From a virus, in the IMG/VR virus record IMGVR_UViG_3300010885_054390, positions 1 to 64,000 of that record: a stretch of 64,000 nucleotides of DNA. One strand, written 5' to 3'. The translations under genes and the position numbers were made by a program. Positions 5,500-53,588 of this stretch are shown in pieces. Position 1 is the stretch's first letter; the number at the start of each line of letters is the position of its first letter. A model generated the notes under the pieces. The model was not told the origin of the DNA and made no database searches. It worked only from the letters and a program-made list of their open reading frames with translations.

Positions 5500-7308
5500 C
5501 TACGAAGTGTAGGCTTCTAGGATGTAGTACGGCTTAGATGCGGCAGAACAAACAAGGTTGAGGCTACTTGCTGGAACATAAGTGCCTTCAAAGCTTACGC
5601 CTCCGCCATTTGCGGGAAGAAGCATTGTGCTCGCGGATGCTGCGGCTCCAAAGTTAAGATTCATATTAGTGTCCGAAAGATTTTGAATAACTAGGTATTT
5701 GCGATTGGCGCGAGCGGCCAAGACCGAGACGCTTGTATTTGCGGTAGCTGATGAATTACCAGTTACAATATTTTCGGTTGCTGTGCCGGGGGCGATGTCA
5801 ACCTTGACTGCGGTAGTGTTGCCACCAAGAACGTTTACCGAGCCAATGGTGTTTGATCCGGTGGGTAAAGATGGAAGAGTGGAAACAACTCCAACATCAA
5901 CACGTCCAACTACTCTTCTTGTGCTTGGATTCCCGGGTAAGGAGAAGGCCATCAGGGGGTCAACAGACTTATAAGAAGTAAATCTGTATCTCCACCCACC
6001 GGATGCGCCGGCTGGTATATTAAGTCGGATATAGCGATAGGAGTTCTGTGTCGATGAGCCGGGTGTGGCTTGCTGCAACGGAACTATAAAACGTCCGGAA
6101 TAAACAGATCGTGATCCGCCAAATAAAGATGTTGCGGTTACGTTTTTATAACTATAGGCGTCTGTTGTGCTCGTAGCCGGAAGGTCGTAGTACGTCGAAA
6201 AGCCATTCGATAAGTTGCCGGCGTCCCACGTCGAGTTATTAGTAGACAAATCGTAGTACAAAGCTCCGGAGGCTCCGGCTCCCGTCAGCGAAATTACAAC
6301 GTAGTCGGCATTCGCCCCAGCATCGAAGGAAGCTGATTGTACGGCTGAGCCTGAAGACGAAAGAACCGTAACAGAGCCAGTGTTAATGATGTAATCGTCG
6401 ATTGGCTGAGTTTCTCTTGTTGGTTGAGTAACTCCCGATCCGTCTACAAGCAAGCGGGTTGAACTTACAGTAAGATTTGAGGGTATCTTTGTATTTACTG
6501 AGCTTAGGGTTGTTTCGGAGGAAGCTCCCGTTGGAAGGGGAAGGGTAGTCGCAAAGACGAGTTGGCCGAAGTTAGATGATGATCTAGGATTAAGTGTATA
6601 GGAATAAGCCCAAGTACCTGACATTCCCGATCCGGCTACTCTGAGTCTAAAATACCTTGCGCCGGCCAAAGCTAGTTTATAAAACCCAGCTGAGCCGATA
6701 TTTTGTACAGGAGATGAAAGACTACCGGAAAGTGGTAATGCGGCCTGAGTAACAAAGGTTGAATTATCGTTTGATACTTGGAATTGGGCGAGACCTACCA
6801 TTGGAAAATCGGTAAATTGAACCATTATTTCAGAAAATCCGCTTACATCAATTGACGATATAATATCCGTACCAACCGCAGAGGTTCCGGGGAGAGTGCC
6901 GGAGCCAGTTGTTAGGCTCTGGTTGTTTGCAGTCACAGTTCCACTAATTGGCTGGGTCGCCTGCCAGAAGGTTCCGGTGACTGGCGTGGTAGGAGCGGTG
7001 GCCAAAGAAACGGGTTGGGTGGCTTGCCAGAAGGTTCCGGTTACGGCGAGACTTGCGTTTTGAACGCTTACGTTCTGAGAGCTTGGAAATGTAACGCTGA
7101 TATTTTCTAGGGCTGCAAGGCTTGTTGCACCAAGTTCGACTGTGCCATCTACGGTGAGAGAACTATTGTTATCGCTTACGGGTATGGGGCTGTTCTCGGA
7201 GTTTTTAATCTCAACTTCGTTAGTGACCGTGACTGGACCAGTAATGGTGGCGGAGCCGGTTTTCGCCGCGATTTCTTCGAGGTAATCTATCTCATTTTTA
7301 CGTGGCAT
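5500..7308 (-). CDS. Ser/Thr-rich virion structural (decoration/fibre) protein
   Basis: VTGTFWQATQP repeat x2, VDGSGVTQP, C-terminal beta domain (ANRKYLVIQNLSD); own upstream promoter. Confidence 0.55.
   Translation of the reverse strand: MPRKNEIDYLEEIAAKTGSATITGPVTVTNEVEIKNSENSPIPVSDNNSSLTVDGTVELGATSLAALENISVTFPSSQNVSVQNASLAVTGTFWQATQPVSLATAPTTPVTGTFWQATQPISGTVTANNQSLTTGSGTLPGTSAVGTDIISSIDVSGFSEIMVQFTDFPMVGLAQFQVSNDNSTFVTQAALPLSGSLSSPVQNIGSAGFYKLALAGARYFRLRVAGSGMSGTWAYSYTLNPRSSSNFGQLVFATTLPLPTGASSETTLSSVNTKIPSNLTVSSTRLLVDGSGVTQPTRETQPIDDYIINTGSVTVLSSSGSAVQSASFDAGANADYVVISLTGAGASGALYYDLSTNNSTWDAGNLSNGFSTYYDLPATSTTDAYSYKNVTATSLFGGSRSVYSGRFIVPLQQATPGSSTQNSYRYIRLNIPAGASGGWRYRFTSYKSVDPLMAFSLPGNPSTRRVVGRVDVGVVSTLPSLPTGSNTIGSVNVLGGNTTAVKVDIAPGTATENIVTGNSSATANTSVSVLAARANRKYLVIQNLSDTNMNLNFGAAASASTMLLPANGGGVSFEGTYVPASSLNLVCSAASKPYYILEAYTS
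6949..7044 (-). repeat. Intragenic duplication encoding VTGTFWQATQP(V/I)S
   Basis: Two copies of tgccagaaggttccggt about 63 bp apart. Confidence 0.8.
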
Positions 7309-11120: not shown

Positions 11121-12881
11121 TTAGAAAGTCTGGTTAAGAAGGTCGATGTTGTCAACATCTGAAGATGCTAACATCAAATTAGATGAATCAAGGGCTCCGG
11201 CATCCTTTTTACGTACAATTGACCTCCAACTGGCTCTTTGGGTTTGCAGGTAGGTTCCGGAAGGGAAAAAGCCGTGAATCTGACGGGCTACGTCTAGGCA
11301 TATAAAAGCTGCATCCGCCAAGTCGGGGCTTCTCCCGACCCTGCTCTTGTAGTCAACCTTCGGCTCCAAACGGATCTTTCCGCCGGCAATCGTTAAGTAC
11401 TTTCGGTTAGTCATTTCCGTGGCTAGCTGTGGGGTGACGCCCCCTAGTTGAAAGCTCCGGAGAGCCTCCAAGGCTACATACCAAAGCTCAGTGGCTCGAA
11501 GGTCAAACTTGTCCCGAGCCAGCATAGGAGAGACGGCGCTCATTGGTAGCTCGGTGGGCTTGCTACCGAATTGCACGCGTAAGATTTGGGAGGAGCCAAG
11601 GATCTCCGAAAGAATGTCGCAAAAGGGCTCTCCACCTCCTGTCGAGTCAACGCCTATGTTTTTTGGAAGAATGTTTTGCTTTCGGCAAATATCTAAGACT
11701 TGGCGGGCTAATTGAAAGTGACGGGGATCGGGACTTCTAACGTCTTCTACTAAGTGAATAAATTGATCAAAGACAAACATAGGTATCCCGGTGGCAATGT
11801 TCTTCCCTAAGAAGCCTACGCAGGCAATAGTTCTGTCGCCGCCACGACTGAACGATGGATCGATGCCCATAATCTTAACGACGTCCGTAAGTGACGGGCG
11901 ACCTTCTCCGTTAAACTTTCGGATGTCTGCCTCGGAAAATACGCAGTCGTCTACTCCGGCAGGAGCAGGGAAGCTGCGAATGAAGCGCCAAAACTGTAGG
12001 GAGTTTTCGCCTTCGTAGGCCTTTGCCTCTTGAATTTTCTTAGTCGTTAGTAAGTACGGCCAGCGATCATCGCTAGTTAGGTTTGGCGATTTCATTCCGT
12101 CGAAGTGAAGACATAACCCCAACTTAGAGGGCCACTCCCCATCTTCTACAGTTACGGAACTCCAACCCGCCTTCGGCTGAGAAAACTGCCCGAAGGGGTC
12201 ATACATAGATTTAAAGTTTCCCAAGCCTACAAATTGAAACTCTGGATTTGAGTCCAAGTTATATAAGGCTTCTACGACAGACGAAGAGATGTCCGTCATT
12301 TCGTCGACAATCAAATACACTCGTTTCTGCTTTAGACCGATAAGCTTTGAGGAGGCTTCTTTTTCTTTCTCTGGGCTAGAGGGAATCAAAACAATTGCGG
12401 AACGATCTGAGCTCTCCCCTTCGTCTAGGCGCAAAATGCCCAAGGAATCTACCAGCTTTCCGGGGAGGCCCGGGACGGCCAAGTAAAGCTCCCGAATCGC
12501 GCCCCAAATTCGCATACGTGCTTCTTTGAGACTGGTTGAGGTCACAAGCACTAGTGTTTCCGAGGGTGAGGCCAGCCAATTGACCAAAGCCCAAACTGCC
12601 ATCGTTTGCGACTTCCCAGAGCTCTTTGGGCCGCTTACGGCTAGGTACTGATTGTCGCACGCTGCTTGAAGCATTTGCTCTGCCCAAGGGTGGAATTCAA
12701 AGCCGCTTTTTGTTTTTCCCTTCGCGGTATGAAGGGGCCAGAGACATTCAATAATCCTGCGGAGATGGCCATACTTCCCAAGGCCCCCATCCTGTTCGGA
12801 TAGTCCTTGCCGGAAGCAAACTAATTCGATGTCGAGGTCGCTTATCTCAGCGGGCCATACTTTCCCGTAACGTTCACGCAT
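11121..12881 (-). CDS. terL: Terminase large subunit
   Basis: Walker A GPKSSGKS, Walker B LIVDE, coupling motif GLGN, nuclease GIDPSF...GGD and SPDLADA. Start re-called at MRERYGK (12881). Confidence 0.9.
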   Translation of the reverse strand: MRERYGKVWPAEISDLDIELVCFRQGLSEQDGGLGKYGHLRRIIECLWPLHTAKGKTKSGFEFHPWAEQMLQAACDNQYLAVSGPKSSGKSQTMAVWALVNWLASPSETLVLVTSTSLKEARMRIWGAIRELYLAVPGLPGKLVDSLGILRLDEGESSDRSAIVLIPSSPEKEKEASSKLIGLKQKRVYLIVDEMTDISSSVVEALYNLDSNPEFQFVGLGNFKSMYDPFGQFSQPKAGWSSVTVEDGEWPSKLGLCLHFDGMKSPNLTSDDRWPYLLTTKKIQEAKAYEGENSLQFWRFIRSFPAPAGVDDCVFSEADIRKFNGEGRPSLTDVVKIMGIDPSFSRGGDRTIACVGFLGKNIATGIPMFVFDQFIHLVEDVRSPDPRHFQLARQVLDICRKQNILPKNIGVDSTGGGEPFCDILSEILGSSQILRVQFGSKPTELPMSAVSPMLARDKFDLRATELWYVALEALRSFQLGGVTPQLATEMTNRKYLTIAGGKIRLEPKVDYKSRVGRSPDLADAAFICLDVARQIHGFFPSGTYLQTQRASWRSIVRKKDAGALDSSNLMLASSDVDNIDLLNQTF

Positions 12882-12956
12882 TAAAATTAGTATCTCAATA
12901 AAATTTGATTTGACAACAAAAAGAAAAACTAGAGAGTACGCAAAGTAAAAAAATGA

Positions 12957-13457
12957 ATGAGAATAGAAAACGCAAAAATAGTAGGAATCGATCCGGGGAA
13001 AAGCGGCGGAATAGCGTACGTAAATGCAAACGACGTGATAGTAGCAGAGCCGTTCGGGAAGACGGAAGGGGACATACTGAATCAGCTTCGGGCTGTGATT
13101 GCGCCAAAAACAAAAGTGTATCTGGAACAAGTGGGAGGGTACGCGGGAAGAAGCCTGCCGGGGAGTGCGATGTTCAACTTTGGAAGAAACTATGGGTTTA
13201 TAATTGGTGTGTTAATGGAGAGGGAAGCCCGAGTTTCTCTTGTGACGCCGCAACGATGGCAAAAAACTCTTGGCGCGGGGACGAGGGGGGAAAGAACAAG
13301 GGACAAATGGAAACTGCATTTGAAGGGACTCGCTCAACTTTCATTTCCCGGTTTGTCAACTATATCTCTGGCAACAAGTGACGCTTTATTAATATTAAAA
13401 TACGCAATGATTCAAGAATCCATATCTCACCATGCCGTTGTTCAACTACCAGCTTGA
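12957..13457 (+). CDS. RuvC-like Holliday junction resolvase
   Basis: IVGIDPGKSGGIA, YLEQV, SAMFNFGRNYG, VTPQRWQK, SDALLI. Confidence 0.85.
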   Translation: MRIENAKIVGIDPGKSGGIAYVNANDVIVAEPFGKTEGDILNQLRAVIAPKTKVYLEQVGGYAGRSLPGSAMFNFGRNYGFIIGVLMEREARVSLVTPQRWQKTLGAGTRGERTRDKWKLHLKGLAQLSFPGLSTISLATSDALLILKYAMIQESISHHAVVQLPA

Positions 13458-41020: not shown

Positions 41021-41279
41021 CTACTCCATCGTTATCGGCATCTTTATACTGAAGTGGGTCTCTCGAGAAAATATTCTCCGAACGCATAAACTTTTCAATT
41101 GTTTCTGTTTCTTCTTCTGCAAATAGCCCACTTTTTCCGTTATGCTTTGGGGAGAACCATCTAACAATATCTCTAGTGAACCTTAAAGTTAGGAAGAAGA
41201 CCGCCGACACAAAACCTGCAATTAAAAATGCAGCAACAATCACCAAAACAGTTCCTATGGCGAGCAGAAGATCTTTCAC
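41001..41279 (-). CDS. Membrane protein
   Basis: N-terminal TM; C-terminal DADNDGVDD Ca-binding-like motif. Confidence 0.55.
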   Translation of the reverse strand: MKDLLLAIGTVLVIVAAFLIAGFVSAVFFLTLRFTRDIVRWFSPKHNGKSGLFAEEETETIEKFMRSENIFSRDPLQYKDADNDGVDDLETR

Positions 41280-41527
41280 TATTTTCCCAGCCCCCTTTTA
41301 TTCCTCGAGCGGTTTGCGCTCTTCGAGGCAATCCGAAGGTTGCTTAGGGAGTTGTTTGATGTGTTGTGATCTTTGTGGTCGATGTCTTTTCCTTTAATTG
41401 CCTGCTTGCCATGCTTCTTTTCCATGACTCTACGAGCAGAGTTACGTTGGGATCTACGCTTAATCTGCTCTGGCGTACCTTGGTAGTTTTCGTACTCTTT
41501 TTTATAATTGCGTTTTCCAAGTGGCAT
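41279..41527 (-). CDS. Small basic HNH-motif protein
   Basis: Start MPLGKRNYKKEY; GKDIDHKD...N..SNLR...NRSRN. Confidence 0.75.
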   Translation of the reverse strand: MPLGKRNYKKEYENYQGTPEQIKRRSQRNSARRVMEKKHGKQAIKGKDIDHKDHNTSNNSLSNLRIASKSANRSRNKRGLGK

Positions 41528-41528
41528 A

Positions 41529-41789
41529 TTAACAACTCCAAAGGACTTTTCTAGCCCAGTAATTTGCGCCCATCTTACCCTTAGTTCCGCCAATTCCACC
41601 GCTCCTAGCACAATAACTCTTACGCCGTTTTTCGCTGTGATGCTGACGATAGTCTTTCATTGAGCTATCCCCAAAATGAATTAGCTTTTCTTTCCCACCC
41701 TCGCAGGCCTTCACCATCATTTTCTTTCCCGGCCTATCGCTACGGCGAGGCTTATTGCAGGGCATTGAAGCTTTTTTTCCGAGCGGCAT
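41529..41789 (-). CDS. Small basic conserved phage protein
   Basis: KLIHFGD...DY..H...RRKSYCAR...ANYWARKVLW. Confidence 0.7.
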   Translation of the reverse strand: MPLGKKASMPCNKPRRSDRPGKKMMVKACEGGKEKLIHFGDSSMKDYRQHHSEKRRKSYCARSGGIGGTKGKMGANYWARKVLWSC

Positions 41790-41984: not shown

Positions 41985-42204
41985 AGCAATCGAAGACGAG
42001 AATATCGTCGAAATACCCGAACAACTTTACGTATTCTTCCTTATGGAAAGGAAGTATCTTTTGGCTAACCTTGACGCCATGCAAAAAGTTATAGCCGCAG
42101 CCAAAAATTACAGCTCGGATGAGGTCGGGGAGTGTTGCTTTAAGGACTATATTCAGTCTTTAGATGAGCTTTACAAGTTTTATACCGAAGTCGGACTTCT
42201 CTAA
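41881..42204 (+). CDS. Hypothetical protein (start uncertain; overlaps the previous gene)
   Basis: The C-terminal part fills the gap up to the convergent giant gene. Confidence 0.4.
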   Translation: MKWSVLKQKLAKLSQIASQKANLENHEGSVKDLNKAIEDENIVEIPEQLYVFFLMERKYLLANLDAMQKVIAAAKNYSSDEVGECCFKDYIQSLDELYKFYTEVGLL

Positions 42205-45200
42205 TTCTTCTGCCTGCTTAGCTCTTCATTGTAAGCCTTGCTTACGCCCATAATAATCTCTTTTTGCCTGTCTTTTAGAGCTTTGATTTCGGCGGAGCGA
42301 TCATCGCCACCCTCCTCGGATTGCTTCTGAATAGCTTTGAGTTGTTGCTTAACCTTCTGAAGCTGGCCGCTAGCGCTTCTAACAATCGGATAAACGTTAA
42401 TTTCCGCAGCGTATTTTTCTGACGCTTTTTGCGCTCCTTCGGTATCGCCCCGTCCACCGAGTAGTTTCTGCTCTTCAATGGCAGTGTAGGCAGCCTGTCG
42501 AATTGCCGAAAATCTTTCGTAGTCAGCGTAGCTTGGTTGTTCGCCTACGAACCTGCGGAGGATCGGGATGTCGTTTAACCCAAGGCTCTCATTCGGATTG
42601 AGAATTTTCTCCGGTAGCGAAGCCACACGAAGGATGGTCGATCCAACTGCACCGGTCAGATAGCCCGCAAAGTAGTCCATATATTCTGGCGAGAACGACA
42701 AAGCTCCCTCGCGAACTTCATTGCCGCCGGAGATTTCGTTCATAAACTTTGTTAAGTGTTTAAACGCAGGAGTTACACTGTTGAAGTATTTCTCTGAAGC
42801 CGGCGTGGGTGAGGCGTCGCCGGGGAAGTCGGAGGGCGTGATTGGCCTGCCCGCCCAGTCTTGGTTTAAATAAATATCTGTCAAAGGCTGGAAAACTGTG
42901 GGCGTAAGTGATGATAGTAGGTTTCTAGCCCCGCCGATGGGGTTAAAGCTCTCCATAAGAGTTTCGGCCATTCGAACTGCCGTATTCCCGTTTGTCTTCT
43001 TACCTAGCACCAAGTCGGACAGAATGTTTCCAGTGTGCCAAAAAGTGTTGTACCCGTAAGGCAACGGGAGGGATACGTACCTTCCCTTGGTTCCGGGGAG
43101 CATAATAATGATGTTTGTACGCTTTTTAAACTCGGGAACCTTTGACCAAAAGCTTTCGCCATCCTCATCATCTCCACCCGAAGCCTCGTTAAACATACTG
43201 GCCAACAACCCAGAGGTCACCGCCCCAACTGCTAACTTCCGAACCTTCGGAGAGGTTGCCACCGACTGCACCAGTCTGGCCGAGCCCTGTAGGGAGGCAT
43301 TAAAGAACAAATAGATGCTGTTAAACACCGGCCCAGCCTCGCCCTTCTTCGTAAAGTTTACGGTAGCGTTTCTGGCAATCGCAGCGGCCTGCTGATCGGT
43401 GGCTCCCAATTCTCTTGCGTGATGAAAGACGGCTAAACGAGTGGCATTTTCTACGCCCCCGTTCATTTTTTCAATCCAATTAGATGATGCCTTTAGAAAC
43501 TTTTGAGCTGAGTTGGGGTCTTTCCCGTCCACAATCTTTTGAATGTCTTTTATCTGTGTTTCAATGTCCCCGGTAACCCATCCAATTAGCTTTCCGCCGG
43601 CCTTCAAGAAAGCTCTGTAGCTGTCGCCCCACTCATCTTGAGTAGAGTTGGGGTTAAATTCTTCCGCCAGCGAAGTCCGAAGCGGTTTTAGCGAAAGCAC
43701 TGACTTCACTACCCTACCGGATAAATCTTTATACTGTTCCGCAGATAAGTTGAAGGCTGCGGTCTGTAAGTCTCGGATCGGATTAGTAAAGAAGAACTCC
43801 GGGCTAAGGCCAGTCCGGGTAATTGAAAGCAAACGGTTAAACGTTGCCAAGGCCCCCACTACTTTGCTCGACCAATTCTCGCTATTGATGCCCCCGTTTT
43901 TAAGATTTCGAACAAGATCGGGGTTTTTAATCCGGATAAACTTGGTCTCCCCGTTAATTTTTGTAGCAAAAATATCGTCTTGGTTCATCCAAGTTGGGTC
44001 AATAAAGTCTCTGGCGTATTGGAAGGCCTCTCCTGATTCTGGATCTTTTCTGGTTACTAGCCTCCGAACTGTCTGGGGCTTCGCAATCTCCCATAGATCG
44101 CTGTCGGGGTATGCCTGCACCAACTCATAAAGGGCATTTCCGAGAACGTTCTTTTCCGCTCTGACGATACCCGCTGCGGCACTATTCATTGCATAGGCTA
44201 GAATATTTTCTGCCCTGCTCAGACGACCTAAGGTCGGCTTAACTTCTTCACCACGGATATTAAATCCTTTTCCAGTGGCTTGCCCGCTAGTAGCGATTTC
44301 TTCCGCCGTGGCTCCGGGGATTCCCTTTAGCGGAACATAATCTTTATACCTGTCGGTAAGAGCCTCGAATAAGGGTCGGGAGATCAATCCTTCGTCTAAA
44401 CGTTGTCGGAGGGCCCCGTCAATCATTTGCCGGATCATCTGGCGGGACTCCTCAAGCTGAGTGGCTCTATCGTCAGCCTTGTACTTGGCGATCAAATCGT
44501 CTGCCTCTGCGTCGGTCATTCCCGAGCCTCTTTCGTGAAGTTGTTCTATGTATTCTTTGTTCTTCTTGGCCTTGTTGTATTTGGCGAGCTCTTCTGGTGT
44601 TGCGTCCTCTCCGGGGAAATAGGGCTCTGGGGGCATGGGATTGATAAGTCGGATACGTGCGTTCCGCTCTTTCGCGTGCAGGGCGTACATAAACTCCTCA
44701 ATCTCGGCTGTCGAGATTCCCGAGCTCCTAAGCTTTTGAAGAATGGGCTCGACTATGTTTTCGTTGAAGTCAGTTAGGCGTGCTCCGACCTTTCCGTGGT
44801 AGAGCTCCTCAAGTTGATAGGCGTTTAAACTGTCTGGCAGCGGCTCGCCAATTTGTTTCTCAATGGATTCTTGGATCTTCTTTAAGTCAATAAACCTATC
44901 TTGCCAAAATCTTCTCAGGCCGAGGATTTTGTCTGCATTCGTCACATACTTCCCGAGAAGCTCTCTAGCAAATCTCGGCAAGAAAGGAACTTTGCTTTCG
45001 TCAAAGAACACTTTGTTTTCCGGTTGGTACTTGAATCCACCAATAGGGGCCGCGCCTAAAATGTCGGGCGAAGAAGTGAAGTCCGAGTTCAGTCCATTTG
45101 CGAGCTTTAGCTGGTCTGCATTGAAAACGACAAACCTTGAGTTCTGTGCTTTATCATCCGTATTGGCTTCTCCTAGTTCAATGGAGTCAAAGCCAAAACC

Positions 45201-48200
45201 TTTGAGCACCCCTTGGAAAAATGTATTCGCGAAGGCTGTGGAGTCTGCCAAGTGCGGGTAGCTTTGCTCCTCAATCGCATCGGCTGTAGTTTTAATTCTT
45301 TCGGAAACTTCAGATAGCTTCATTCCAGTTTGATCTGCAATAGCCTTCGAAAGCATTGGGACAATCGCCTCTTTAATGAATACCGAGCCATCAAAGACGT
45401 GCTCTGGAACCGAAGCCATTCGCAACGGATTCTCCGCCCTTACAAAAACAGGCGTTTTCATTCTTGGCTTGCCGTCTTTTTGATAGGCCTGCGCTACGGA
45501 GAATTGAACGTCATCTGCCCTGACCTGATCTCGGCTATATGTCAACGCCCCGCCCGGGGTGCTTAGAGTATTAGGGGCTCTAATATCGGAGGTTGCTACG
45601 TAGTATTGAACTGCGGGGCTTCCGTCTGGTCGAGTCACCTTGCTGTTCCCGAACCAGTCTTTAAATTCTTTGAGCTTTGTAACTAAGTTTAAAACTTCGG
45701 AATCGGGAGTTGCCTTCAAAAAGTAAGGTAGGCGACTCGCAATAAAATCTCTTGACGCTGGGGAAATCGACGGGAAGACCTCATGGGTCAAGACAGCCGT
45801 AAGAGCTGGCACCGAATCTCCTTTAAAAATTGTACGTAGGCGGTCGAAGGTGCCCCTATCTAACCCCTCTTCTTGGAAGTCAGCGACAACTTTCTCCATT
45901 GTATTGTTGAAGGCCTCGGCTGAATTCCTGAACTTCTCAATTTGTTTAAACAGATCGTAGTTCCTGCGGCGGAAGTCGGGGTTGTCCAATAAGCCAACAC
46001 GATAGTTTCCGTTTTCGTCTATTTGGTCGTCAGCCTCTAAATATGATTCTTCGATTCGGCGTACGAAAGAATCAATAAAAGCATTCTTACGGATAGCTTT
46101 TTTATAATCAAAGGCCTTCCCGTTAAGGAAAACCGGTTTCTTTGCGTAGCCAACAACCTTTGCCAACTGCATCTGCTGTTCGTCTGTCGGCTCTTTCGGC
46201 CCAGTAACCTTCAGGCCAGCGTCAGAGACCTCAACCTGAAGCCAGTTTTTCTTAAAGTTAGAAAGGTCTTTCTTGGAGAACAGCTCTGTTTCGGAAATTG
46301 AATCGAAGTTTCCGCCCTCAATTAAAGCTCCCTTTGCGGTCATCAGACCGCTCACCGGGTTCTCTGGGTTAAACGTTGTGGCTCCAATTTCAGTAAGTTC
46401 TATTTCGCTCGGCTCAATTGGAGTAATCCTCGCAGCATGAAGCCTGTCTCCGTAAACAATCTCTTTTGCGTCTTCAAAGGTAGCTCCGTTTGCCGTCTGC
46501 AAGAACCTCACTAAATCCTCCGACGGAACATACTTCGCAACAAAAGATGCTGCGTCTTTCAGGATTTCAGGGGAACCATTAAAGCGATAGGCTTCCGCCA
46601 GCTTTTTGTAGGCATCATCAAACAAGACTCTTTCGGCTGTTCCGTTTTTGGGGACTTGCGGTAGCCTGCCGCTCGCAAATTTATTCGCGTCTAAACGATT
46701 TGCGGCCATGTAGCCTTCGTCCGGACTTAGCTTTGCTGTCTCTACATAGGTAAACTTTCCATTGCTCTCCATCAAAGCCAAATTACCGCCAACTCCGGGC
46801 ATCATAACAAATGCCTCGCCGGCCTTGGTACGCATTAACGGAACCTTGAACATCGAAGCAGTCGCGGCGAGAACTCGATCTTTGTTCTCTGAAGAGGCGT
46901 TAATTGCCCTTAGCAAATTGGTCTGAAAGCTTTCTTTCGTAGAAGCGCTAAAGCTCCCCAATAGGTCGTTCCAAAAATCAAGGACTGCCGTATTATTTTC
47001 AAAGACGCTAAAATCAGATATTACATTTTGAAGAGTCCTATTTTTTTCGTTTACGTCAGTCCAATAGTTTTCACTCTCCATCTTTCTAGCAAAGGACATC
47101 TTCTGGAAACCCTTCATGCGTCGCAATGGGAAATTAAATCCCGCTACCGACCTCAAAAGCTGTTGGGATGGAGATGCGGCCCCAATGGTTGTATCTTGCT
47201 TGGGAGCTTCGACTTCCCAAGGAGCAGGTTCGTTTCTTCGGATCTCCGCTAGTCTCTTCTGTTCGGCTAAATACTTTTCATCGTCTTTCTTTACACCGGA
47301 GTAATTCAATTTCTTTTCCGGGTACATCATCTCCGGAAGAAGCTCAATTTCTTGTGCAGTCATACCCGGAAGTCGCTTGCCAGTAATCGGGTCGTACTCA
47401 GGTGCGCTACGCTTTGCGTAGGTTTTCGCCATAATAACAAGCTCAACTTCGGGTATTCTTTGCCACTTCGTAAATTCTTCCGGAAGAAGAGCTACTTTTT
47501 GCTTTGCGTACGGGGCCGTTCCTTTTTCCGATTTAATATCTGAGTTGAGCAAGGAGTATCTGTGCGGGCCAAAGTTAAACCAACTATTCTGCCCCCTTGT
47601 TTCCGTTGTCAAAGCCCTCTGTGCATTGTCGGAAAACATCTGAGAATGCTTGATCCAAGCATTTTCTTCCCCTCGGGGCCCGAAGCCGTAACCCTCTGCG
47701 GCGTGACCAAATAGGTCGTGAATTGCACGCAGTTTCTCGTTTAAACTTACTCCGTTTTCGTCTCGCTTTCCGAGGTAGGGGTGAGATTCTCCGCCAGTAA
47801 AATAGAACAACCGATTGTTGGAGCGAACATCCTTCCGCATTTCGGAAGAAGTTTCGTAGGGCTGACCTTCTTTTGTCCAAGGCTCAAAACGCATCCCCAT
47901 CTTTTCTGTGGCAAACTTCCATTGCTCTTCAATCTCAGAAGCTAAAGATTCGTAGGCTTTTTTAACTTCTTCGGAAGGATCAAAGTCTGGAAGGTTTTCG
48001 TAGGCTTCCGCAATCTTAGTTGCCTCCTCTTTTCTGACTGGAACCCAAATGTGATCCACCATAATCGGGCCACGGCGGGATGCCTCTTTGGCCTGTCTAA
48101 GTAGTCTGGCGCTGGATTGCGCCTTGCTCCAACCCCTTACGCGCCGATTGGCTTGCGGCGAGGCCGATTCTCCAACTGATCCTCCTCCGATAGCGGCCCG

Positions 48201-51200
48201 ACTGACTCCGAGATGATAAGCCGCGAGCCCTTTGGTGAAATCGTCGGGGATGTCTTGTAGCCGATTCCCAAGTTGCTCAAGAAGTCCGGAGTAATCTTGT
48301 TGCTCGATGACTTGGATTTGTCCGAGCTCACTACGGGCTTCTTTGATGAGACCTTTGTAGGCTTCGAAGAACTTAGTGATTCTGTCTTGAGTTTGTTCAT
48401 TTTGTTGTACTCCTAAGTAGAGGGTATTAGAGGCGGTGTCAATTCCGAACCCGTCTTCGAAGCCAAGCTTTCTAGCGTTGGCCACAAACTTGTTTAAACC
48501 GGATCGGTCTTTAAAGACAATCTCGTGCTCTACATCTGTGGGGTTAGTTACGTTAGTGTCGAAAATATAGACCGCCCTTTGAACTTCGGGGGTAGAAAAC
48601 GGATTGGAGGCAAGCAAGGCCGCAAGGGGCTTGGGATCGCCCTCCGGAAGAGTGAATACAACTGACGGCTCCAATTGTAGCCCAACGTCTGGATTGTCCC
48701 ATCCACCAACAGTATTTGTTGGGTCAGTTATGTTGTAGCCGAAGATCGAAGCAAGTTTCATTAGGTTCTTGCCACGCTTGGCAAACCTAGTTTCCGCCAA
48801 ATTGTCTGCATTCTTCAGGCTCTTAAAGTTCCTATCGCGCATTGCAGCGACGGCGACCTTGGCGGCCCCAAAGATGTCCATCTCTCCGACGACATTCGAG
48901 ATCTGGCCGGGAGTAAGCGGTTTAAACAGCGTTTTGCTTTTTGCGGGCCACCTATCGTGAACTACGCCAAGCTCTAAGGAAATTGCTTTTTGAATCAATA
49001 GATCGATTTGGTCTCTACCGGGCTTGCCCTCCAAGAGAATATTGTTTCCGTCATTCGTCATGCGGAGCCATCCACGGCTAAACATTTCATTGTTCACATT
49101 CTTGCCGAGGCTGTATCCGTATTTCTGCTGAAGGTCTTTATAAATTTCAGGCTCGTTCTCTTGGAGCCACATAATCATTTCGCCGGCGTGACTATCCATA
49201 GAATCCATTCCCTCGTAGCGAATTGCGGAGCTTTCTACTGGAATAATCTCGCCCTTTGGCCCCATCCAATAAGGATCGAAGTCGGGAAGTTTATCAATGG
49301 CTTTTGTGTTTGGCTCAGGGGTGATCTTAGCTGCGCCGAGAACGTCTCCCAAGCGATAGCGCTTCAGGCCAAGTTTCTTTAAAATTCCGGGGCTGGCATT
49401 TGCAAAACGAAGTGTTCCGATTTCTTTTATCATCGAAGGCCGAAGCGTTTCCGACATCCACTTTTCAACTCGTTCCCTAGCCCTTTGCCTTCTTTTCTTT
49501 TCCCCCGAAGAAAGATTCCTAGTTCTGGTAGCATCCTTTTCGGACTCAAAGTACCCTGTGATCTCAATCTTCTGTGAGTAGGGATTAAACTTTGCCTGTA
49601 GGTTTCCACGAAAGACGTTGTCGAAGATTTCTTTTTCGGCTCCCGTAAAAGGAGCTTCCGCAATAATCTTGTTTAGCTTTTGCCCTACGCTTTCTTTGCT
49701 TTCGCGACTAATTTTATCAAGGATCTCCGGCTCAACAGAAAGCACCGCTTGTCCATTTTCATCGAAGGCTGCGTCCGTATACTCCGGAACTTCTTGCGAT
49801 TCGATTGTATCTGGTACCTGCTCCCCCAGCCTATCGCCCCAGTTTGCCGTTACAGCCGTTTTAGCCTGCCCTGTTTCAGGATTTATGCTCGCTACCTTTT
49901 GGCTTTCATCCATTGAGTCAGTAAACGTCGGGGCATTGGGGTCTTCATCTGGGAGTACGGTGGCTTGGTCTTCGACGGAAGCGTCTATTTGAGGGGTTAC
50001 GTCTTCCTCCATTTGGGGGTCGCTCTGCTCGTCAACTTGCTGTTGAATCGGCGTTTCGGTTTTATCTGACGGGCCTTTTTTCAGCTTTTGCTCTAATTCA
50101 GTGCTGATTAAACGCGAAAGTTTGTTCTTGATGGAGCGGAACACGGCTGTTTTTTGTTCCTCCTTACTGCCATTCTCTGGGAAATTTGTCTCTCGGGATG
50201 CGGTCATCAAATAGATAAGAGCTTCGTTTGCAACTTCGGAAGGGGTCTTAATGCCCATTCTCTCTAGCTCAAACTTGAACACCGGATTATTTCGAATGTA
50301 TCCCGCAAAATACTTAACGGTTTCATTCACCATCTCCGGGTCATTAATGAGCGAGTCCAAGATCTTGTCGGCGTTCGGGTTTACATCCTCACCCATCTTG
50401 CTGTTTACGGTTACATCAATAGAATTGAAGTATTGCCCCTGTGCCGCTTCCTGACCTCTCGGCGTCTCTCTTGTAACGGGAGCCGCGCCTAATGTCTCTT
50501 CATCCTCTGGAATAGACAAGGTTGGCTCGTCGGGCATTTGAGCTTTTTGTTCTTGAGGCTTTGATTTACCAACAAAAGCCTCGAAGGATGGAATAGGTAC
50601 TTCGTCACCTTCTTTTGCCTTCACAATACTGTCACGAATCATCTGCCGGTACTCTGTTAGCTTCTGCGAGGCCTGCACCGGATCGCCAAGTATCTTTTTT
50701 GCAACTAAATTGCGGATTGTAGTCTCTCGTTTTTGAAGAGTTGCTGAGTCTTTCTTGCGGTCTTTCCCATCCCGACGCCTACCAGAATCATAGGCATCCG
50801 CGCTATTTTGATCTGGGAATACCAACCTAACGCTCCCGTACTTTCCGCGAGCCTGAAAGCGTTTAAGCGAAGAAGGGTTTACCTTTGCCGGAGTTTCTTT
50901 TTTTGCTGGCTTTGGAACTGGTGTCGCTTTTGCCTTCGGAGCTGGCGCCTTAATCTTTTCGGCTTCTATTTCTTTCCGAATGTTGTCCCTAACAACGTTT
51001 AAAGCATCGAGCTGACGGTATCTGTCTTGCTCCAATTCCACTTCGTCAGGAACTGGGGACGCTTCAATCTCGGCAATCTTGTTTGAGGTTTCGTCAAACT
51101 TTGCTTGAAGCGTTGCAAGCCTTGAGGGCTGTTGCGGCTCTAATGTAGCAGGGACAGCTTCTGAACCTTGCGTAGAAGCGTCTGGTTGAAGGGTCTCGAG

Positions 51201-53588
51201 AGGAGTGGCAGTTTCTTGAGGTTGGCCCTCTCCTTTTGTTTCGACGGGCGCGACTGCGGCTGTAGCTGTTGTTGCTGCTTTTTTTGAGCTTTTCTGGAAA
51301 ATTTTCTCAGCTTTTTGTTTTTCATCTAGCAAACTATTAATAGCCTTTAAATGCTCCTTTACAACAGGCGAGTCTTTTGAGAGCCCGCGAACCGCACGTT
51401 GCCAGTAATCCTTCGCTGAAAGAAGGGACTCCTCCAAGATTCCGGCCTTCTGTTTGTCCATGTCTTTTCTGTTTTGCCAAGTATCTTCTGTGGTGACTCC
51501 AATCTTTTTCCTTTGAATCAACTGGCGAACAAACTCGCTGTAAAGATTGTTGCCGCTAAGATTCTCGTCACCGTATTGAGCGCGGGTGTCGCGGATTTCT
51601 TTTTCTGTCATCTGCGAGGCACCCTTTTCACCAAACTCTTTTCTCCACTGGCTAAAGGAAGTTTTATTTGGGTCTACCTCTCCGCGATTGATGGCCTGCT
51701 GATAAAGGTTTGCCCTTGCCTTTGTCATGTCTGTGTCGTGAATCAACTCTTCTGCCATTGCAGATATTAGATACGTTTGTCGCCTTTTTTCGGCTAGCTG
51801 TGCGTTACCACCCTTTTCTCCCTTAACTTTTTGGTCAATGCCTGAAAGCTCTTGCTTGAGAAGATCTAGGTTTATTTGAACTGTATTTTCTTCATTGGTA
51901 TCAATAGAGAAAGCCCTGTTATTGTCAGAAAACTTAATTGTGATCGGCTTGTCTGGGTTTGCTCCGAGCACATTGTAAGCTTCCTTCATTGCCATCCCGG
52001 TAAGCCTTTTTGCGCGGTTAAACGCGGACTCTTTTTGGGTGTTGTCTAGGCCGCTATGTAGGCTGTCAAAAGACTCCCTATCAAAAGTAAATGGGTTGTT
52101 GGCTTGTTCCTGCTCATCCCCCATTAGCTTAGTCATCAAGTTACTTTGATTCCGGAAATCTTGCATGGCCAAAGCCATTGATGTCTTGGGCGCGAAGTTG
52201 CGAAGCCTTTCAGCGACTAAGTCCGCCCTAGAAGATCCTCTCGCTGCTGCGATAACCGGTGCTCCACCTCCGACCTCCAAAGCGCCCTCCATAGCGATTG
52301 CATTTGGGTCTGTAATGTCTCCGTAGGCCAACTGCTGGCTAAGCGCCTCTCCACCCATTCCGCCCGTAACCTCAGTTAAAAATAAACCGCCAGTTTCAGC
52401 TACCTTCCGAAGCCTGCTTACCCCTTTTAGGCCAGCCTTTACAGCGGTGCTCTCGAAGGCGGAGGATAGCCCAAAGGTGGCAAGAGCCGTTAGCCCGTCA
52501 ACAACGCCCACCGGAACGCCCTTTTCATTTGCGGCCTGCTTAACCTTGCCCATCAGCTCTTCGTTCTGCATTGCTGCGACAAGTTGCTCGGGGTCGTTTA
52601 CGTTAATCCCGTCAAAGCCGGGTGTGGGATCTTTTAAAGGCTCCTTGCCATTCTTTACCCGCTCAATGTTCTTAGCCCGAATATCCTTTTGAATCTCGCC
52701 ACTCAAAAGCCCCATTAACGTCCCCGAATATTCCAGCTCGTAGGAGCTCTTTCCTGTAGCGGTGGCTACGCCCGTCCTGAAGCCCTGCTTTGCGCCTTGA
52801 ATGGCCCCCGGAATCGCGCCCACACCGTCAAAGGCGACTCCCACCCCAGCACCAATTCCCGCCCCAGCAAGGGTCTGCCCCACAATGGCGTCTGCATTAG
52901 TGGCAATCTTTGGGGTAAGCATCGAGAGCTGCTCGACCATAGCCCCAGCAAAATTGGGTAGAACCGACTTCGACAAAAAGATGTCCCCAACTGTTTCCTT
53001 TGGCGGGGCCAGTTTTGAGATCTCTTCGTTTAAACGCTTAACATCTGAGGCGGCTTTTTCCATGCCGCTTTGATCTTTTTCAGCCGCAGCTTTTTCCAAG
53101 GCTTCGGTGGCCTCGGACAATTGGTACTGCTTAAATCCGTAGGTTCCGCGCTCAAAAAGTTCTGGGCCATTAAAAACGTATTTCTCCAAGACGTTTCTGT
53201 CGGGCCTGTCCAACTGGAAGGCCTTCTCAATCTGTTTAAACTGATCGTTAAGTTGTTTTCTGCCTGTTGCCGTTTGGAGGGCTCCCGTTGGCTCAACGGC
53301 TTGAAGAGTTTTTCCGCGCCAAGTGTCAAAGAGTTCTTTTTTCTTTTCGAAGTCAGCCTTATCAAAGTTTGAGGCTACCTGATAATCGTTCCAGCTTTGA
53401 GGCCCGTTTTGTTGAGCCGGCTCTGTCGCAACCTGTTCTGCTGGGACCTCTTGCGAGGCTTCTTCCGCTGTAGCTAGCGATGAAAGTTTTTGATTTATCT
53501 CCGGTGTAAGCTTGTCGAGCTCTTCTTGAGTTATGTCTTCGGGGAGGTCAAGGTTCACTTGCCCCCTACCGGGGATGTCTACTAACAT
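42201..53588 (-). CDS. Large polyvalent ejection/internal virion protein (zincin-like, sigma-like, HDxxGH, ART-like and LPD38-like modules)
   Basis: 3795 aa; last of three ejection-type genes. EELIH; RAIHDLFGH...GEENAW...ETRGQNSW; FKDWFGNSK...VVFNADQLK; C-terminal NFTKKG...YLFFNASLQG...LPLPYGYN. Confidence 0.8.
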   Translation of the reverse strand: MLVDIPGRGQVNLDLPEDITQEELDKLTPEINQKLSSLATAEEASQEVPAEQVATEPAQQNGPQSWNDYQVASNFDKADFEKKKELFDTWRGKTLQAVEPTGALQTATGRKQLNDQFKQIEKAFQLDRPDRNVLEKYVFNGPELFERGTYGFKQYQLSEATEALEKAAAEKDQSGMEKAASDVKRLNEEISKLAPPKETVGDIFLSKSVLPNFAGAMVEQLSMLTPKIATNADAIVGQTLAGAGIGAGVGVAFDGVGAIPGAIQGAKQGFRTGVATATGKSSYELEYSGTLMGLLSGEIQKDIRAKNIERVKNGKEPLKDPTPGFDGINVNDPEQLVAAMQNEELMGKVKQAANEKGVPVGVVDGLTALATFGLSSAFESTAVKAGLKGVSRLRKVAETGGLFLTEVTGGMGGEALSQQLAYGDITDPNAIAMEGALEVGGGAPVIAAARGSSRADLVAERLRNFAPKTSMALAMQDFRNQSNLMTKLMGDEQEQANNPFTFDRESFDSLHSGLDNTQKESAFNRAKRLTGMAMKEAYNVLGANPDKPITIKFSDNNRAFSIDTNEENTVQINLDLLKQELSGIDQKVKGEKGGNAQLAEKRRQTYLISAMAEELIHDTDMTKARANLYQQAINRGEVDPNKTSFSQWRKEFGEKGASQMTEKEIRDTRAQYGDENLSGNNLYSEFVRQLIQRKKIGVTTEDTWQNRKDMDKQKAGILEESLLSAKDYWQRAVRGLSKDSPVVKEHLKAINSLLDEKQKAEKIFQKSSKKAATTATAAVAPVETKGEGQPQETATPLETLQPDASTQGSEAVPATLEPQQPSRLATLQAKFDETSNKIAEIEASPVPDEVELEQDRYRQLDALNVVRDNIRKEIEAEKIKAPAPKAKATPVPKPAKKETPAKVNPSSLKRFQARGKYGSVRLVFPDQNSADAYDSGRRRDGKDRKKDSATLQKRETTIRNLVAKKILGDPVQASQKLTEYRQMIRDSIVKAKEGDEVPIPSFEAFVGKSKPQEQKAQMPDEPTLSIPEDEETLGAAPVTRETPRGQEAAQGQYFNSIDVTVNSKMGEDVNPNADKILDSLINDPEMVNETVKYFAGYIRNNPVFKFELERMGIKTPSEVANEALIYLMTASRETNFPENGSKEEQKTAVFRSIKNKLSRLISTELEQKLKKGPSDKTETPIQQQVDEQSDPQMEEDVTPQIDASVEDQATVLPDEDPNAPTFTDSMDESQKVASINPETGQAKTAVTANWGDRLGEQVPDTIESQEVPEYTDAAFDENGQAVLSVEPEILDKISRESKESVGQKLNKIIAEAPFTGAEKEIFDNVFRGNLQAKFNPYSQKIEITGYFESEKDATRTRNLSSGEKKRRQRARERVEKWMSETLRPSMIKEIGTLRFANASPGILKKLGLKRYRLGDVLGAAKITPEPNTKAIDKLPDFDPYWMGPKGEIIPVESSAIRYEGMDSMDSHAGEMIMWLQENEPEIYKDLQQKYGYSLGKNVNNEMFSRGWLRMTNDGNNILLEGKPGRDQIDLLIQKAISLELGVVHDRWPAKSKTLFKPLTPGQISNVVGEMDIFGAAKVAVAAMRDRNFKSLKNADNLAETRFAKRGKNLMKLASIFGYNITDPTNTVGGWDNPDVGLQLEPSVVFTLPEGDPKPLAALLASNPFSTPEVQRAVYIFDTNVTNPTDVEHEIVFKDRSGLNKFVANARKLGFEDGFGIDTASNTLYLGVQQNEQTQDRITKFFEAYKGLIKEARSELGQIQVIEQQDYSGLLEQLGNRLQDIPDDFTKGLAAYHLGVSRAAIGGGSVGESASPQANRRVRGWSKAQSSARLLRQAKEASRRGPIMVDHIWVPVRKEEATKIAEAYENLPDFDPSEEVKKAYESLASEIEEQWKFATEKMGMRFEPWTKEGQPYETSSEMRKDVRSNNRLFYFTGGESHPYLGKRDENGVSLNEKLRAIHDLFGHAAEGYGFGPRGEENAWIKHSQMFSDNAQRALTTETRGQNSWFNFGPHRYSLLNSDIKSEKGTAPYAKQKVALLPEEFTKWQRIPEVELVIMAKTYAKRSAPEYDPITGKRLPGMTAQEIELLPEMMYPEKKLNYSGVKKDDEKYLAEQKRLAEIRRNEPAPWEVEAPKQDTTIGAASPSQQLLRSVAGFNFPLRRMKGFQKMSFARKMESENYWTDVNEKNRTLQNVISDFSVFENNTAVLDFWNDLLGSFSASTKESFQTNLLRAINASSENKDRVLAATASMFKVPLMRTKAGEAFVMMPGVGGNLALMESNGKFTYVETAKLSPDEGYMAANRLDANKFASGRLPQVPKNGTAERVLFDDAYKKLAEAYRFNGSPEILKDAASFVAKYVPSEDLVRFLQTANGATFEDAKEIVYGDRLHAARITPIEPSEIELTEIGATTFNPENPVSGLMTAKGALIEGGNFDSISETELFSKKDLSNFKKNWLQVEVSDAGLKVTGPKEPTDEQQMQLAKVVGYAKKPVFLNGKAFDYKKAIRKNAFIDSFVRRIEESYLEADDQIDENGNYRVGLLDNPDFRRRNYDLFKQIEKFRNSAEAFNNTMEKVVADFQEEGLDRGTFDRLRTIFKGDSVPALTAVLTHEVFPSISPASRDFIASRLPYFLKATPDSEVLNLVTKLKEFKDWFGNSKVTRPDGSPAVQYYVATSDIRAPNTLSTPGGALTYSRDQVRADDVQFSVAQAYQKDGKPRMKTPVFVRAENPLRMASVPEHVFDGSVFIKEAIVPMLSKAIADQTGMKLSEVSERIKTTADAIEEQSYPHLADSTAFANTFFQGVLKGFGFDSIELGEANTDDKAQNSRFVVFNADQLKLANGLNSDFTSSPDILGAAPIGGFKYQPENKVFFDESKVPFLPRFARELLGKYVTNADKILGLRRFWQDRFIDLKKIQESIEKQIGEPLPDSLNAYQLEELYHGKVGARLTDFNENIVEPILQKLRSSGISTAEIEEFMYALHAKERNARIRLINPMPPEPYFPGEDATPEELAKYNKAKKNKEYIEQLHERGSGMTDAEADDLIAKYKADDRATQLEESRQMIRQMIDGALRQRLDEGLISRPLFEALTDRYKDYVPLKGIPGATAEEIATSGQATGKGFNIRGEEVKPTLGRLSRAENILAYAMNSAAAGIVRAEKNVLGNALYELVQAYPDSDLWEIAKPQTVRRLVTRKDPESGEAFQYARDFIDPTWMNQDDIFATKINGETKFIRIKNPDLVRNLKNGGINSENWSSKVVGALATFNRLLSITRTGLSPEFFFTNPIRDLQTAAFNLSAEQYKDLSGRVVKSVLSLKPLRTSLAEEFNPNSTQDEWGDSYRAFLKAGGKLIGWVTGDIETQIKDIQKIVDGKDPNSAQKFLKASSNWIEKMNGGVENATRLAVFHHARELGATDQQAAAIARNATVNFTKKGEAGPVFNSIYLFFNASLQGSARLVQSVATSPKVRKLAVGAVTSGLLASMFNEASGGDDEDGESFWSKVPEFKKRTNIIIMLPGTKGRYVSLPLPYGYNTFWHTGNILSDLVLGKKTNGNTAVRMAETLMESFNPIGGARNLLSSLTPTVFQPLTDIYLNQDWAGRPITPSDFPGDASPTPASEKYFNSVTPAFKHLTKFMNEISGGNEVREGALSFSPEYMDYFAGYLTGAVGSTILRVASLPEKILNPNESLGLNDIPILRRFVGEQPSYADYERFSAIRQAAYTAIEEQKLLGGRGDTEGAQKASEKYAAEINVYPIVRSASGQLQKVKQQLKAIQKQSEEGGDDRSAEIKALKDRQKEIIMGVSKAYNEELSRQKN

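Follow-up and report, generated by a model that had tools for sequence, protein, structure and literature searches.

A giant polyvalent protein with a recurrent junction motif

The DNA analyzed here (the window) comprises positions 1 to 64,000 of the IMG/VR virus record IMGVR_UViG_3300010885_054390 and is the first part of a single 80,254-bp contig from an uncultured phage. The presence of a large terminase gene at 11121-13130 on the minus strand, recognized by PHROGs and Pfam, indicates a tailed phage. An open reading frame (ORF) at 42201-53588 (minus strand) closes a minus-strand run (operon) of very large genes and encodes a protein of 3795 amino acids (aa), designated P0001. An earlier note on this DNA had suggested that P0001 is a polyprotein punctuated by a short motif around the tripeptide Gly-Ala-Ala (GAA), at which it would be cut into independent effectors. 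This suggestion is followed up here by computational analysis.

P0001 is an LPD38-type large polyvalent protein. The assignment is based on Pfam and PHROGs matches: the LPD38 model (PF18857, cutoff 27 bits) matches aa 3481-3676 with an E-value of 3.2e-36, and phrog_14770/616 is matched over aa 2893-3793. PHROGs matches in P0001 are confined to the last ~900 aa plus one domain at aa 1852-2014. The C-terminal module is common to at least 297 giant phage and prophage proteins. P0001 also carries several unrelated effector-type domains, and its architecture varies among relatives. The LPD38 match, together with an ART-PolyVal-like domain, bears out the earlier description of a polyvalent giant built from cassettes. 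Proteins of the LPD38 class are annotated as "DarB-like" in Bcep22-like podoviruses, and gp47 of phage phi24B, a homologue of P0001, has been found in virions, and a role in ejection has been suggested for it. By analogy with these homologues, P0001 may be packaged in the capsid of a podovirus-type phage and ejected from it.

There are exactly five GAA tripeptides in P0001, at aa 1034, 1418, 1574, 2136 and 2845, each of which follows Leu, Ile or Phe. A variant of the same motif, LHAA, is found at aa 2383. Four matches to the strict pattern, [DE]x[LIF]GAAx[VI], are present in the protein as compared with a mean of 0.0064 in shuffled sequences, and none of 5000 shuffles reached four. A more permissive pattern, [LIFYM].AA[KRPS][IVLP], matches exactly the six sites and none of the other AA dipeptides among the 32 in P0001. 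The resulting consensus is a hydrophobic residue, Gly (less often His or Gln), Ala, Ala (less often Ser or Gly), one of Lys, Arg, Pro or Ser, and one of Val, Ile, Leu or Pro; Asp or Glu plus one further residue often precede it, and any residue plus Pro often follow. A second HAA in P0001 (aa 1962, LFGHAAEG) is no junction: it forms part of HDLFGHAAEG, a conserved motif within a folded domain.

Because the codons differ between the copies (e.g. GGC GCG GCT, GGG GCC GCC and CAT GCT GCG), selection on the junctions is placed at the peptide level. The sites divide P0001 into pieces of 1034, 384, 156, 562, 248, 461 and 950 aa. Thus the recurrence of the motif, its positions, the divergence of the underlying DNA and the piece sizes are all as the earlier note had described them. 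In the 80-kb genome, one other ORF (5500-7308, minus strand) contains the junction pattern, once, with ~0.5 occurrences expected by chance. This match, NLNFGAAASAS at aa 553, lies 49 aa from the C-terminus of an unannotated 602-aa protein of the structural region, which could be a second substrate.

Conservation of the junctions and cassette exchange among relatives

Nine full-length relatives (P0002-P0010), with 46-98% identity in the searched region, and two relatives from metagenome contigs (L005 and L008) were compared with P0001. All six junction sites are kept in each of the 11 relatives, and the variants seen are only conservative ones (GAS, GAG, GVA, HAA and QAA); site 5 of L008, for instance, reads L-Q-A-A-K-I-N-P. 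The conservation of the junction cores is 0.83-1.00 as compared with 0.71 for the whole protein, and indel-rich flanks adjoin four of the six sites.

The BLAST high-scoring segment pairs between P0001 and its relatives P0007, P0009 and P0010 stop at aa 1578 and restart at aa 2133-2138, which is at most five residues from sites 3 and 4. When the relatives are cut at the motif, a common cassette map is obtained, B-C-D-variable-F-A-G. The variable slot is filled by cassette E, H, J or I+E, and each filling ends in its own copy of the motif. In the I+E filling, the extra cassette likewise carries its own motif copy. At the other end of the map, the Pfam model of the ART-PolyVal domain in P0007 ends 8 residues before site 6. 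As judged from sequence comparison, the breakpoints at the motif are the strongest evidence that the motif would have a boundary role. The earlier expectation that it would be kept at boundaries in homologues was confirmed in all 11 relatives.

Two irregularities were noticed among the relatives. In P0007, site 1 is tandemly duplicated at aa ~1119-1130 (DENLGATLGAAAPRR). In L006 (12640-12672), there is an apparent stop codon after aa 889; it was considered as a split gene, and this was rejected, since the stop is located at the contig end past a poly-A run and is probably a sequencing or assembly artifact.

The EExxH domain, motifs in other lineages and further features

The N-terminal module of P0001 contains a domain with the signature E613-E614-x-x-H617 and an invariant E685. 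Structures were predicted with AlphaFold (AF2) for aa 440-1639 and aa 1700-2899, with a mean predicted local distance difference test (pLDDT) score of 51 and 44, respectively. In the EExxH region (pLDDT 60-84), the predicted order of elements is a backing helix, three strands, a long helix with E613-E614-L-I-H617 and a later helix with E685. The latter residue (SEFVR in P0001, AxE[FY]xRQ in general) is on the predicted helix of aa 680-696 and is a putative metal ligand. The only specific fold matches of this region were selecase and abylysin (Foldseek probability 0.7-0.8, TM-score by target 0.5). A comparison of aa 522-697 with these two proteins by VIA gave Z-scores of 4.0-5.2 and a root mean square deviation of 2.7-4.2 Å over 76-92 aligned residues, and E613-E614-x-x-H617 superposes on H69-E70-x-x-H73 of selecase. 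A wide VIA fold search with the model of aa 440-1639 returned a list filled by matches to a helical hairpin at aa 818-886, and a search of the ESM Atlas with aa 470-770 gave scores below 0.9 and was uninformative.

A profile of aa 490-770 was searched against 1.84 billion representatives and yielded 13 remote homologues. Most of these are 2000-4600 aa long, one has 1024 aa, and one is a stand-alone protein of 115 aa. All 10 family members and every remote homologue that covers the motif have EExxH and never HExxH. The homologues also share MTxxE..R..YG and AxE[FY]xRQ..Q...TE. Judged by this pattern of residues, EExxH is a conserved active-site-like signature and not a decayed zincin. The domain was not found in the 150-odd other giant proteins collected. 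Pfam matches to the MPTase-PolyVal (PF18818) or MuF-type peptidases were not obtained with P0001 (E ≤ 1) or with P0007 and P0008 (E ≤ 0.001). IMG/VR contains a distant relative of 4229 aa (L002/L004) whose C-terminal module is 26% identical. At aa 932 it carries a canonical HESNH, which is 150 aa after a conserved Gly-rich block, the same distance as that of EELIH in P0001. BLAST gives no alignment of HESNH with EELIH; the HESNH of L002 may represent the ancestral HExxH state of the EExxH domain.

[LIFYM]GAA is not enriched in the 110 LPD38 giants examined that lack the EExxH domain (86 observed, 93 expected), in agreement with the earlier note's idea of a lineage-specific code. Other recurrent linker peptides are found in other lineages: P0015 has seven copies of Q-F-M-P-[AKS]-K, P0111 four of E-T-T-A-G-P-R and P0076 three of D-[IV]-R-Y-S. 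In P0083, [HS]P-D-D-I-R-K-G-P-Y-Y-S is present twice. The remaining EExxH giants were scanned for recurrent pentapeptides without bias. LGAAEP occurs three times in P0180, with one copy directly before an ART-PolyVal domain. In P0175, P0178, P0179 and P0181, [FYHG]-A-A-[DRA]-P occurs two to four times in indel-rich linkers, with one copy right after an ART-PolyVal domain. For [GHFY]AA.P, a pattern chosen post hoc, there are 14 occurrences versus 2.7 expected in the 11 other EExxH giants, and 24 versus 42 expected in the 110 giants without the domain.

The earlier note had also drawn attention to a DIRYS/DIRFS-like tail that usually follows ART-like domains. The tail itself is real: D[IV]R[FY]S comes after the Q[IV]KS..GN.G.F end of ART-PolyVal-type domains, and P0001 reads QLKLANGLNSDFTSSPDILGAA there, with DILGAA in the slot, as stated. 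It is not usual, as it was seen in only ~6 of the ~24 ART-PolyVal-bearing proteins examined.

Features of the giant gene and its product. All positions are those of the window.
Feature	Position	Strand	Basis
Giant ORF P0001, LPD38-type large polyvalent protein	42201..53588	-	Pfam, PHROGs, gene order
N-terminal module: Gly/Ala-rich hydrophobic segment (aa 229-274), DUF6861-like	52767..52904	-	Pfam E 7e-6, just under cutoff
EExxH domain (aa ~522-697), candidate cis protease	51498..52025	-	AF2, fold search, profile search
E613-E614-x-x-H617 (EELIH) in helix	51738..51752	-	Sequence, AF2
Invariant E685 in SEFVR, later helix	51525..51539	-	Sequence, AF2
Junction site 1, L-G-A-A (aa 1033-1036), in Pro/Glu-rich, indel-rich linker	50481..50492	-	Motif scan, alignment
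Cassette 2 (aa 1037-1416), constant in all relatives, helical	49341..50480	-	Cassette map, fold search
Junction site 2, L-G-A-A (aa 1417-1420), then K-I-T-P-E-P	49329..49340	-	Motif scan, alignment
Cassette 3 (aa 1421-1572), constant, invariant D-S-H-A-G-E-M ... V-H-D-x-W-P	48873..49328	-	Cassette map, alignment
Junction site 3, F-G-A-A (aa 1573-1576), upstream border of variable cassette slot	48861..48872	-	Motif scan, BLAST
Cassette 4 (aa 1577-2134), variable slot; here one further domain plus HAAEG domain	47187..48860	-	Cassette map, PHROGs
HAAEG domain in cassette 4 (aa 1843-2047), phrog_3170	47448..48062	-	PHROGs, stand-alone homologues
Junction site 4, I-G-A-A (aa 2135-2138), downstream border of variable slot	47175..47186	-	Motif scan, BLAST
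Cassette 5 (aa 2139-2382), constant	46443..47174	-	Cassette map
Junction site 5, variant L-H-A-A (aa 2383-2386), R-I-T-P downstream	46431..46442	-	Motif scan, alignment
Cassette 6 (aa 2387-2843), ending in ART-PolyVal-like domain	45060..46430	-	Cassette map, Pfam
ART-PolyVal-like domain (aa 2698-2837) in cassette 6	45078..45497	-	Pfam E 9e-4, below cutoff
Junction site 6, L-G-A-A (aa 2844-2847), ~8 aa past ART-PolyVal-like domain, before C-terminal module	45048..45059	-	Motif scan, Pfam
Cassette 7 (aa 2848-3795), conserved C-terminal module with LPD38 (aa 3481-3676)	42201..45047	-	Pfam, PHROGs

Several of the listed features can be described further from the relatives. The DUF6861 match of the N-terminal module is above the Pfam cutoff in P0007 and P0008. 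For the ART-PolyVal model (PF18760), the scores of P0001 (20.4 bits) and P0007 (30.2 bits) are both below the cutoff of 31.2 bits; the match in P0007 has an E-value of 9e-7 and covers profile positions 3-140 of 140. Cassette 2 has a weak structural match to sigma A of T. thermophilus (5e17_F, Z 3.8, aa 1072-1163), which is thin evidence for a possible sigma-factor-like character. In P0174, one of the remote EExxH giants, Pfam detects Sigma70_r4_2 (E 2.7e-5). The invariant motifs of cassette 3, D-S-H-A-G-E-M...W and V-H-D-x-W-P, together give an HxxE...H pattern, and this cassette is possibly a second metal-dependent enzyme. The HAAEG domain is found elsewhere as stand-alone proteins of 210-250 aa and also inside other giant proteins. 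Its invariant sequence is HDxFGHAAEGxxFGP, and it is matched by ~200 mycobacteriophage records, in which it is inconsistently annotated ("lysin", "RelA/SpoT", "structural protein"). Sequence searches of the PDB with aa 1419-2383 yielded nothing meaningful, and neither did Foldseek with the model of aa 1700-2899, which is poor.

Most genes in the window have no Pfam or PHROGs match. In 30 neighboring or structural ORFs, the two collections detected only TerL, HNH, a tail-protein fragment, an amidase-like match and Ig, FN3 and lectin domains. The HNH endonuclease-like ORF (41279-41611, minus strand; phrog_4590, E 1e-22) is located ~600 bp downstream of the stop codon of the giant gene (42201). 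Almost all of the large genes in the structural region (1400, 1049, 1046, 962, 745 and 738 aa and others) have no match in Pfam or PHROGs. Megablast of the giant gene against 50,697 phage records gave no match, and tblastn with aa ~997-2863 of P0001 gave the HAAEG domain as its sole match. The phage lineage appears to be deeply divergent.

Interpretation of the junction motif and comparison with known systems

On balance, the junction motifs are probably sites of endoproteolytic processing between cassettes. P0001 would then consist of seven cassettes: an N-terminal module with Gly-rich hydrophobic segments and the EExxH domain, five effector or further cassettes, and the LPD38 C-terminal module. 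Cutting at the motifs would release them as separate proteins, either in the head or after ejection. The enzyme would most likely be the protein's own EExxH domain, a gluzincin-like protease with Glu in place of the first metal-binding His; this assignment is a tentative one and takes the larger share of the confidence that we place in processing. The scissile bond is probably one that leaves Gly or Ala as the new N-terminus and not Lys or Arg, due to the N-end rules of bacteria, if these matter here.

A number of observations weigh against this interpretation. No cleavage has been observed for P0001 or any LPD38-type protein, and the phi24B paper reports no processing of gp47. The candidate enzyme lacks the HExxH that defines zincins, it has no Pfam family or PDB sequence match, and Z-scores of 4-5 are within the range of chance matches. 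The earlier description of this region as zincin-like is borne out in part: there is a conserved domain with a predicted gluzincin-like topology and a weak similarity to minigluzincins (Z 4-5.2), but neither the canonical motif nor a match to the MPTase-PolyVal model. Cassette 4 (562 aa) is made up of two or more domains without a motif between them, and therefore the motif parts cassettes and not every domain. The earlier placement of the motifs at boundaries is otherwise supported: they lie at module boundaries, are conserved in homologues and coincide with swap breakpoints. As to their position in linkers, all six sites are in segments with pLDDT below 50, mostly coil. However, 53-66% of the residues in these poor models are below 50, so that the chance of finding all six sites there is ~0.04, and the linker evidence is weak; the low-confidence coil at the sites is only consistent with a linker position and not decisive. 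Finally, no clear AA motif was seen in six of the 11 other EExxH giants, the cross-lineage pattern was selected after the sequences had been viewed, and part of the co-occurrence of EExxH domain and AA motif may stem from shared ancestry, e.g. of the tail after the ART domain.

If the motifs are not cut, they might act between cassettes as conserved hinges or docking peptides, for instance in capsid packing, tail threading or inter-module regulation. There is precedent, since the virion RNA polymerase of N4 and the plasmid ArdC/TraC1 polyvalent proteins are transferred unprocessed (PMC5512222). The small Gly-Ala-Ala core would also suit a flexible hinge. However, a hinge has no need for a sequence-specific signature of 6-8 residues at every joint, newly inserted cassettes included. 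The motif is lineage-specific, yet the modules that flank it are common to lineages without it, and related but distinct AA motifs accompany the EExxH domain in other architectures. We thus regard a hinge function as unlikely, if still to be reckoned with.

It is quite improbable that the motifs are cut by a phage head-maturation protease or by a host protease acting on the packaged protein. In favor of such an enzyme, the EExxH domain has no canonical zincin site, and proteases such as gp21 of T4 and gp175 of phiKZ do cut internal head proteins. Moreover, hydrophobic-x-Ala followed by Ala, Ser or Gly resembles the site of assemblin-type proteases, which are kin of phage prohead proteases and cut (V/L/I)-x-A before S. 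In the genome studied here, though, the motif does not go beyond chance level outside P0001, with its single occurrence in one other ORF, and neither the putative portal nor the capsid candidate nor the intervening 98-aa ORF contains it. No ORF large enough for a protease separates the portal and capsid candidates, and Pfam and PHROGs recognized no protease in the 30 ORFs of the structural region. Least probable by far is that the motif is a by-product of recombination, i.e. a joint left by or promoting cassette exchange, or a chance pattern. Swap breakpoints do coincide with the motif, but the codons differ at every copy, and the DNA shared between copies, at most 12 nt, is too short for homologous exchange; and sites 1, 2, 5 and 6 are conserved to the same degree even though the cassettes that they join are constant. 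The shuffles rule out a chance pattern. A DNA-level repeat or recombination signal was ruled out because the codons differ, and internal translation starts at the motifs were ruled out because there are no start codons after the sites.

Built-in zincin metallopeptidases (MPTases) were proposed to process polyvalent proteins by Iyer, Burroughs, Anand, de Souza and Aravind in 2017 (PMC5512222), and processing of P0001 at its junctions follows this idea. What is new here is the hydrophobic-G-A-A motif, the exact swap breakpoints and the non-canonical EExxH domain as a candidate enzyme; neither the text of Iyer et al. (PMC5512222) nor a wider literature search yielded a junction or cleavage motif for polyvalent proteins. 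A more far-reaching reading, which we consider rather doubtful, is that the EExxH...E domain represents a new family of gluzincin-like endopeptidases, with Glu replacing the first His ligand, that autoprocess giant ejected phage polyproteins at hydrophobic-x-Ala-Ala, and that protease and site code co-evolve between lineages (LGAA[KR][IV]xP, LGAAEP, [FYH]AADP). On this reading, polyvalent proteins would for the first time have an exact cleavage code that can be tested.

Polyvalent proteins, which carry counter-defense enzymes, rank with the largest proteins of phages, and that they are cut into pieces has been a proposal since 2017. The six exact candidate cut sites and the cassette borders are useful for expressing and testing the modules separately, and the EExxH domain provides a specific, unannotated candidate protease with an unusual signature that can be mutated. 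If processing at the motif and its enzyme are confirmed, a new metalloprotease variant would be added, and giant phage proteins from metagenomes could be parsed in their thousands, automatically and by the site code, into functional units.

P0001 shares with the polyvalent proteins of the type described by Iyer et al. (LPD38 class; podoviruses of the Bcep22 and 933W/phi24B types) that it is giant, multi-domain and encoded with virion genes. It differs in that the MPTase-PolyVal and MuF models are unmatched, the candidate protease has EExxH in place of HExxH, and most cassettes are unannotated. The predicted order of the candidate protease domain is like that of the minigluzincins selecase and abylysin and of gluzincins, i.e. 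a backing helix, a three-stranded sheet, an active-site helix and a later helix with an invariant Glu. In contrast to gluzincins, every member of the domain family has Glu in the position of the first zinc ligand, and the Z-scores are weak and no PDB chain is matched by sequence.

Among phage proteases, T4 gp21 cuts at L/I-x-E and phiKZ gp175 at S/A/G-x-E; these phages have a gene for a prohead protease, and the motif recurs in their capsid and scaffold proteins. P0001 has in common with them a recurrent short motif in a phage protein, but neither a motif shared with such proteins nor a prohead protease gene was found here. In MARTX toxins, a giant delivered polypeptide with swappable effectors, the toxin's own cysteine protease domain (CPD) cuts the linkers between effectors at short sites with a hydrophobic residue next to small ones. 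P0001 belongs to an unrelated family with a candidate protease of a different class, Pfam detects no CPD in it, and it would be delivered by phage ejection and not by secretion. In functional terms, MARTX-type toxins nevertheless appear to be the closest analogy to P0001.

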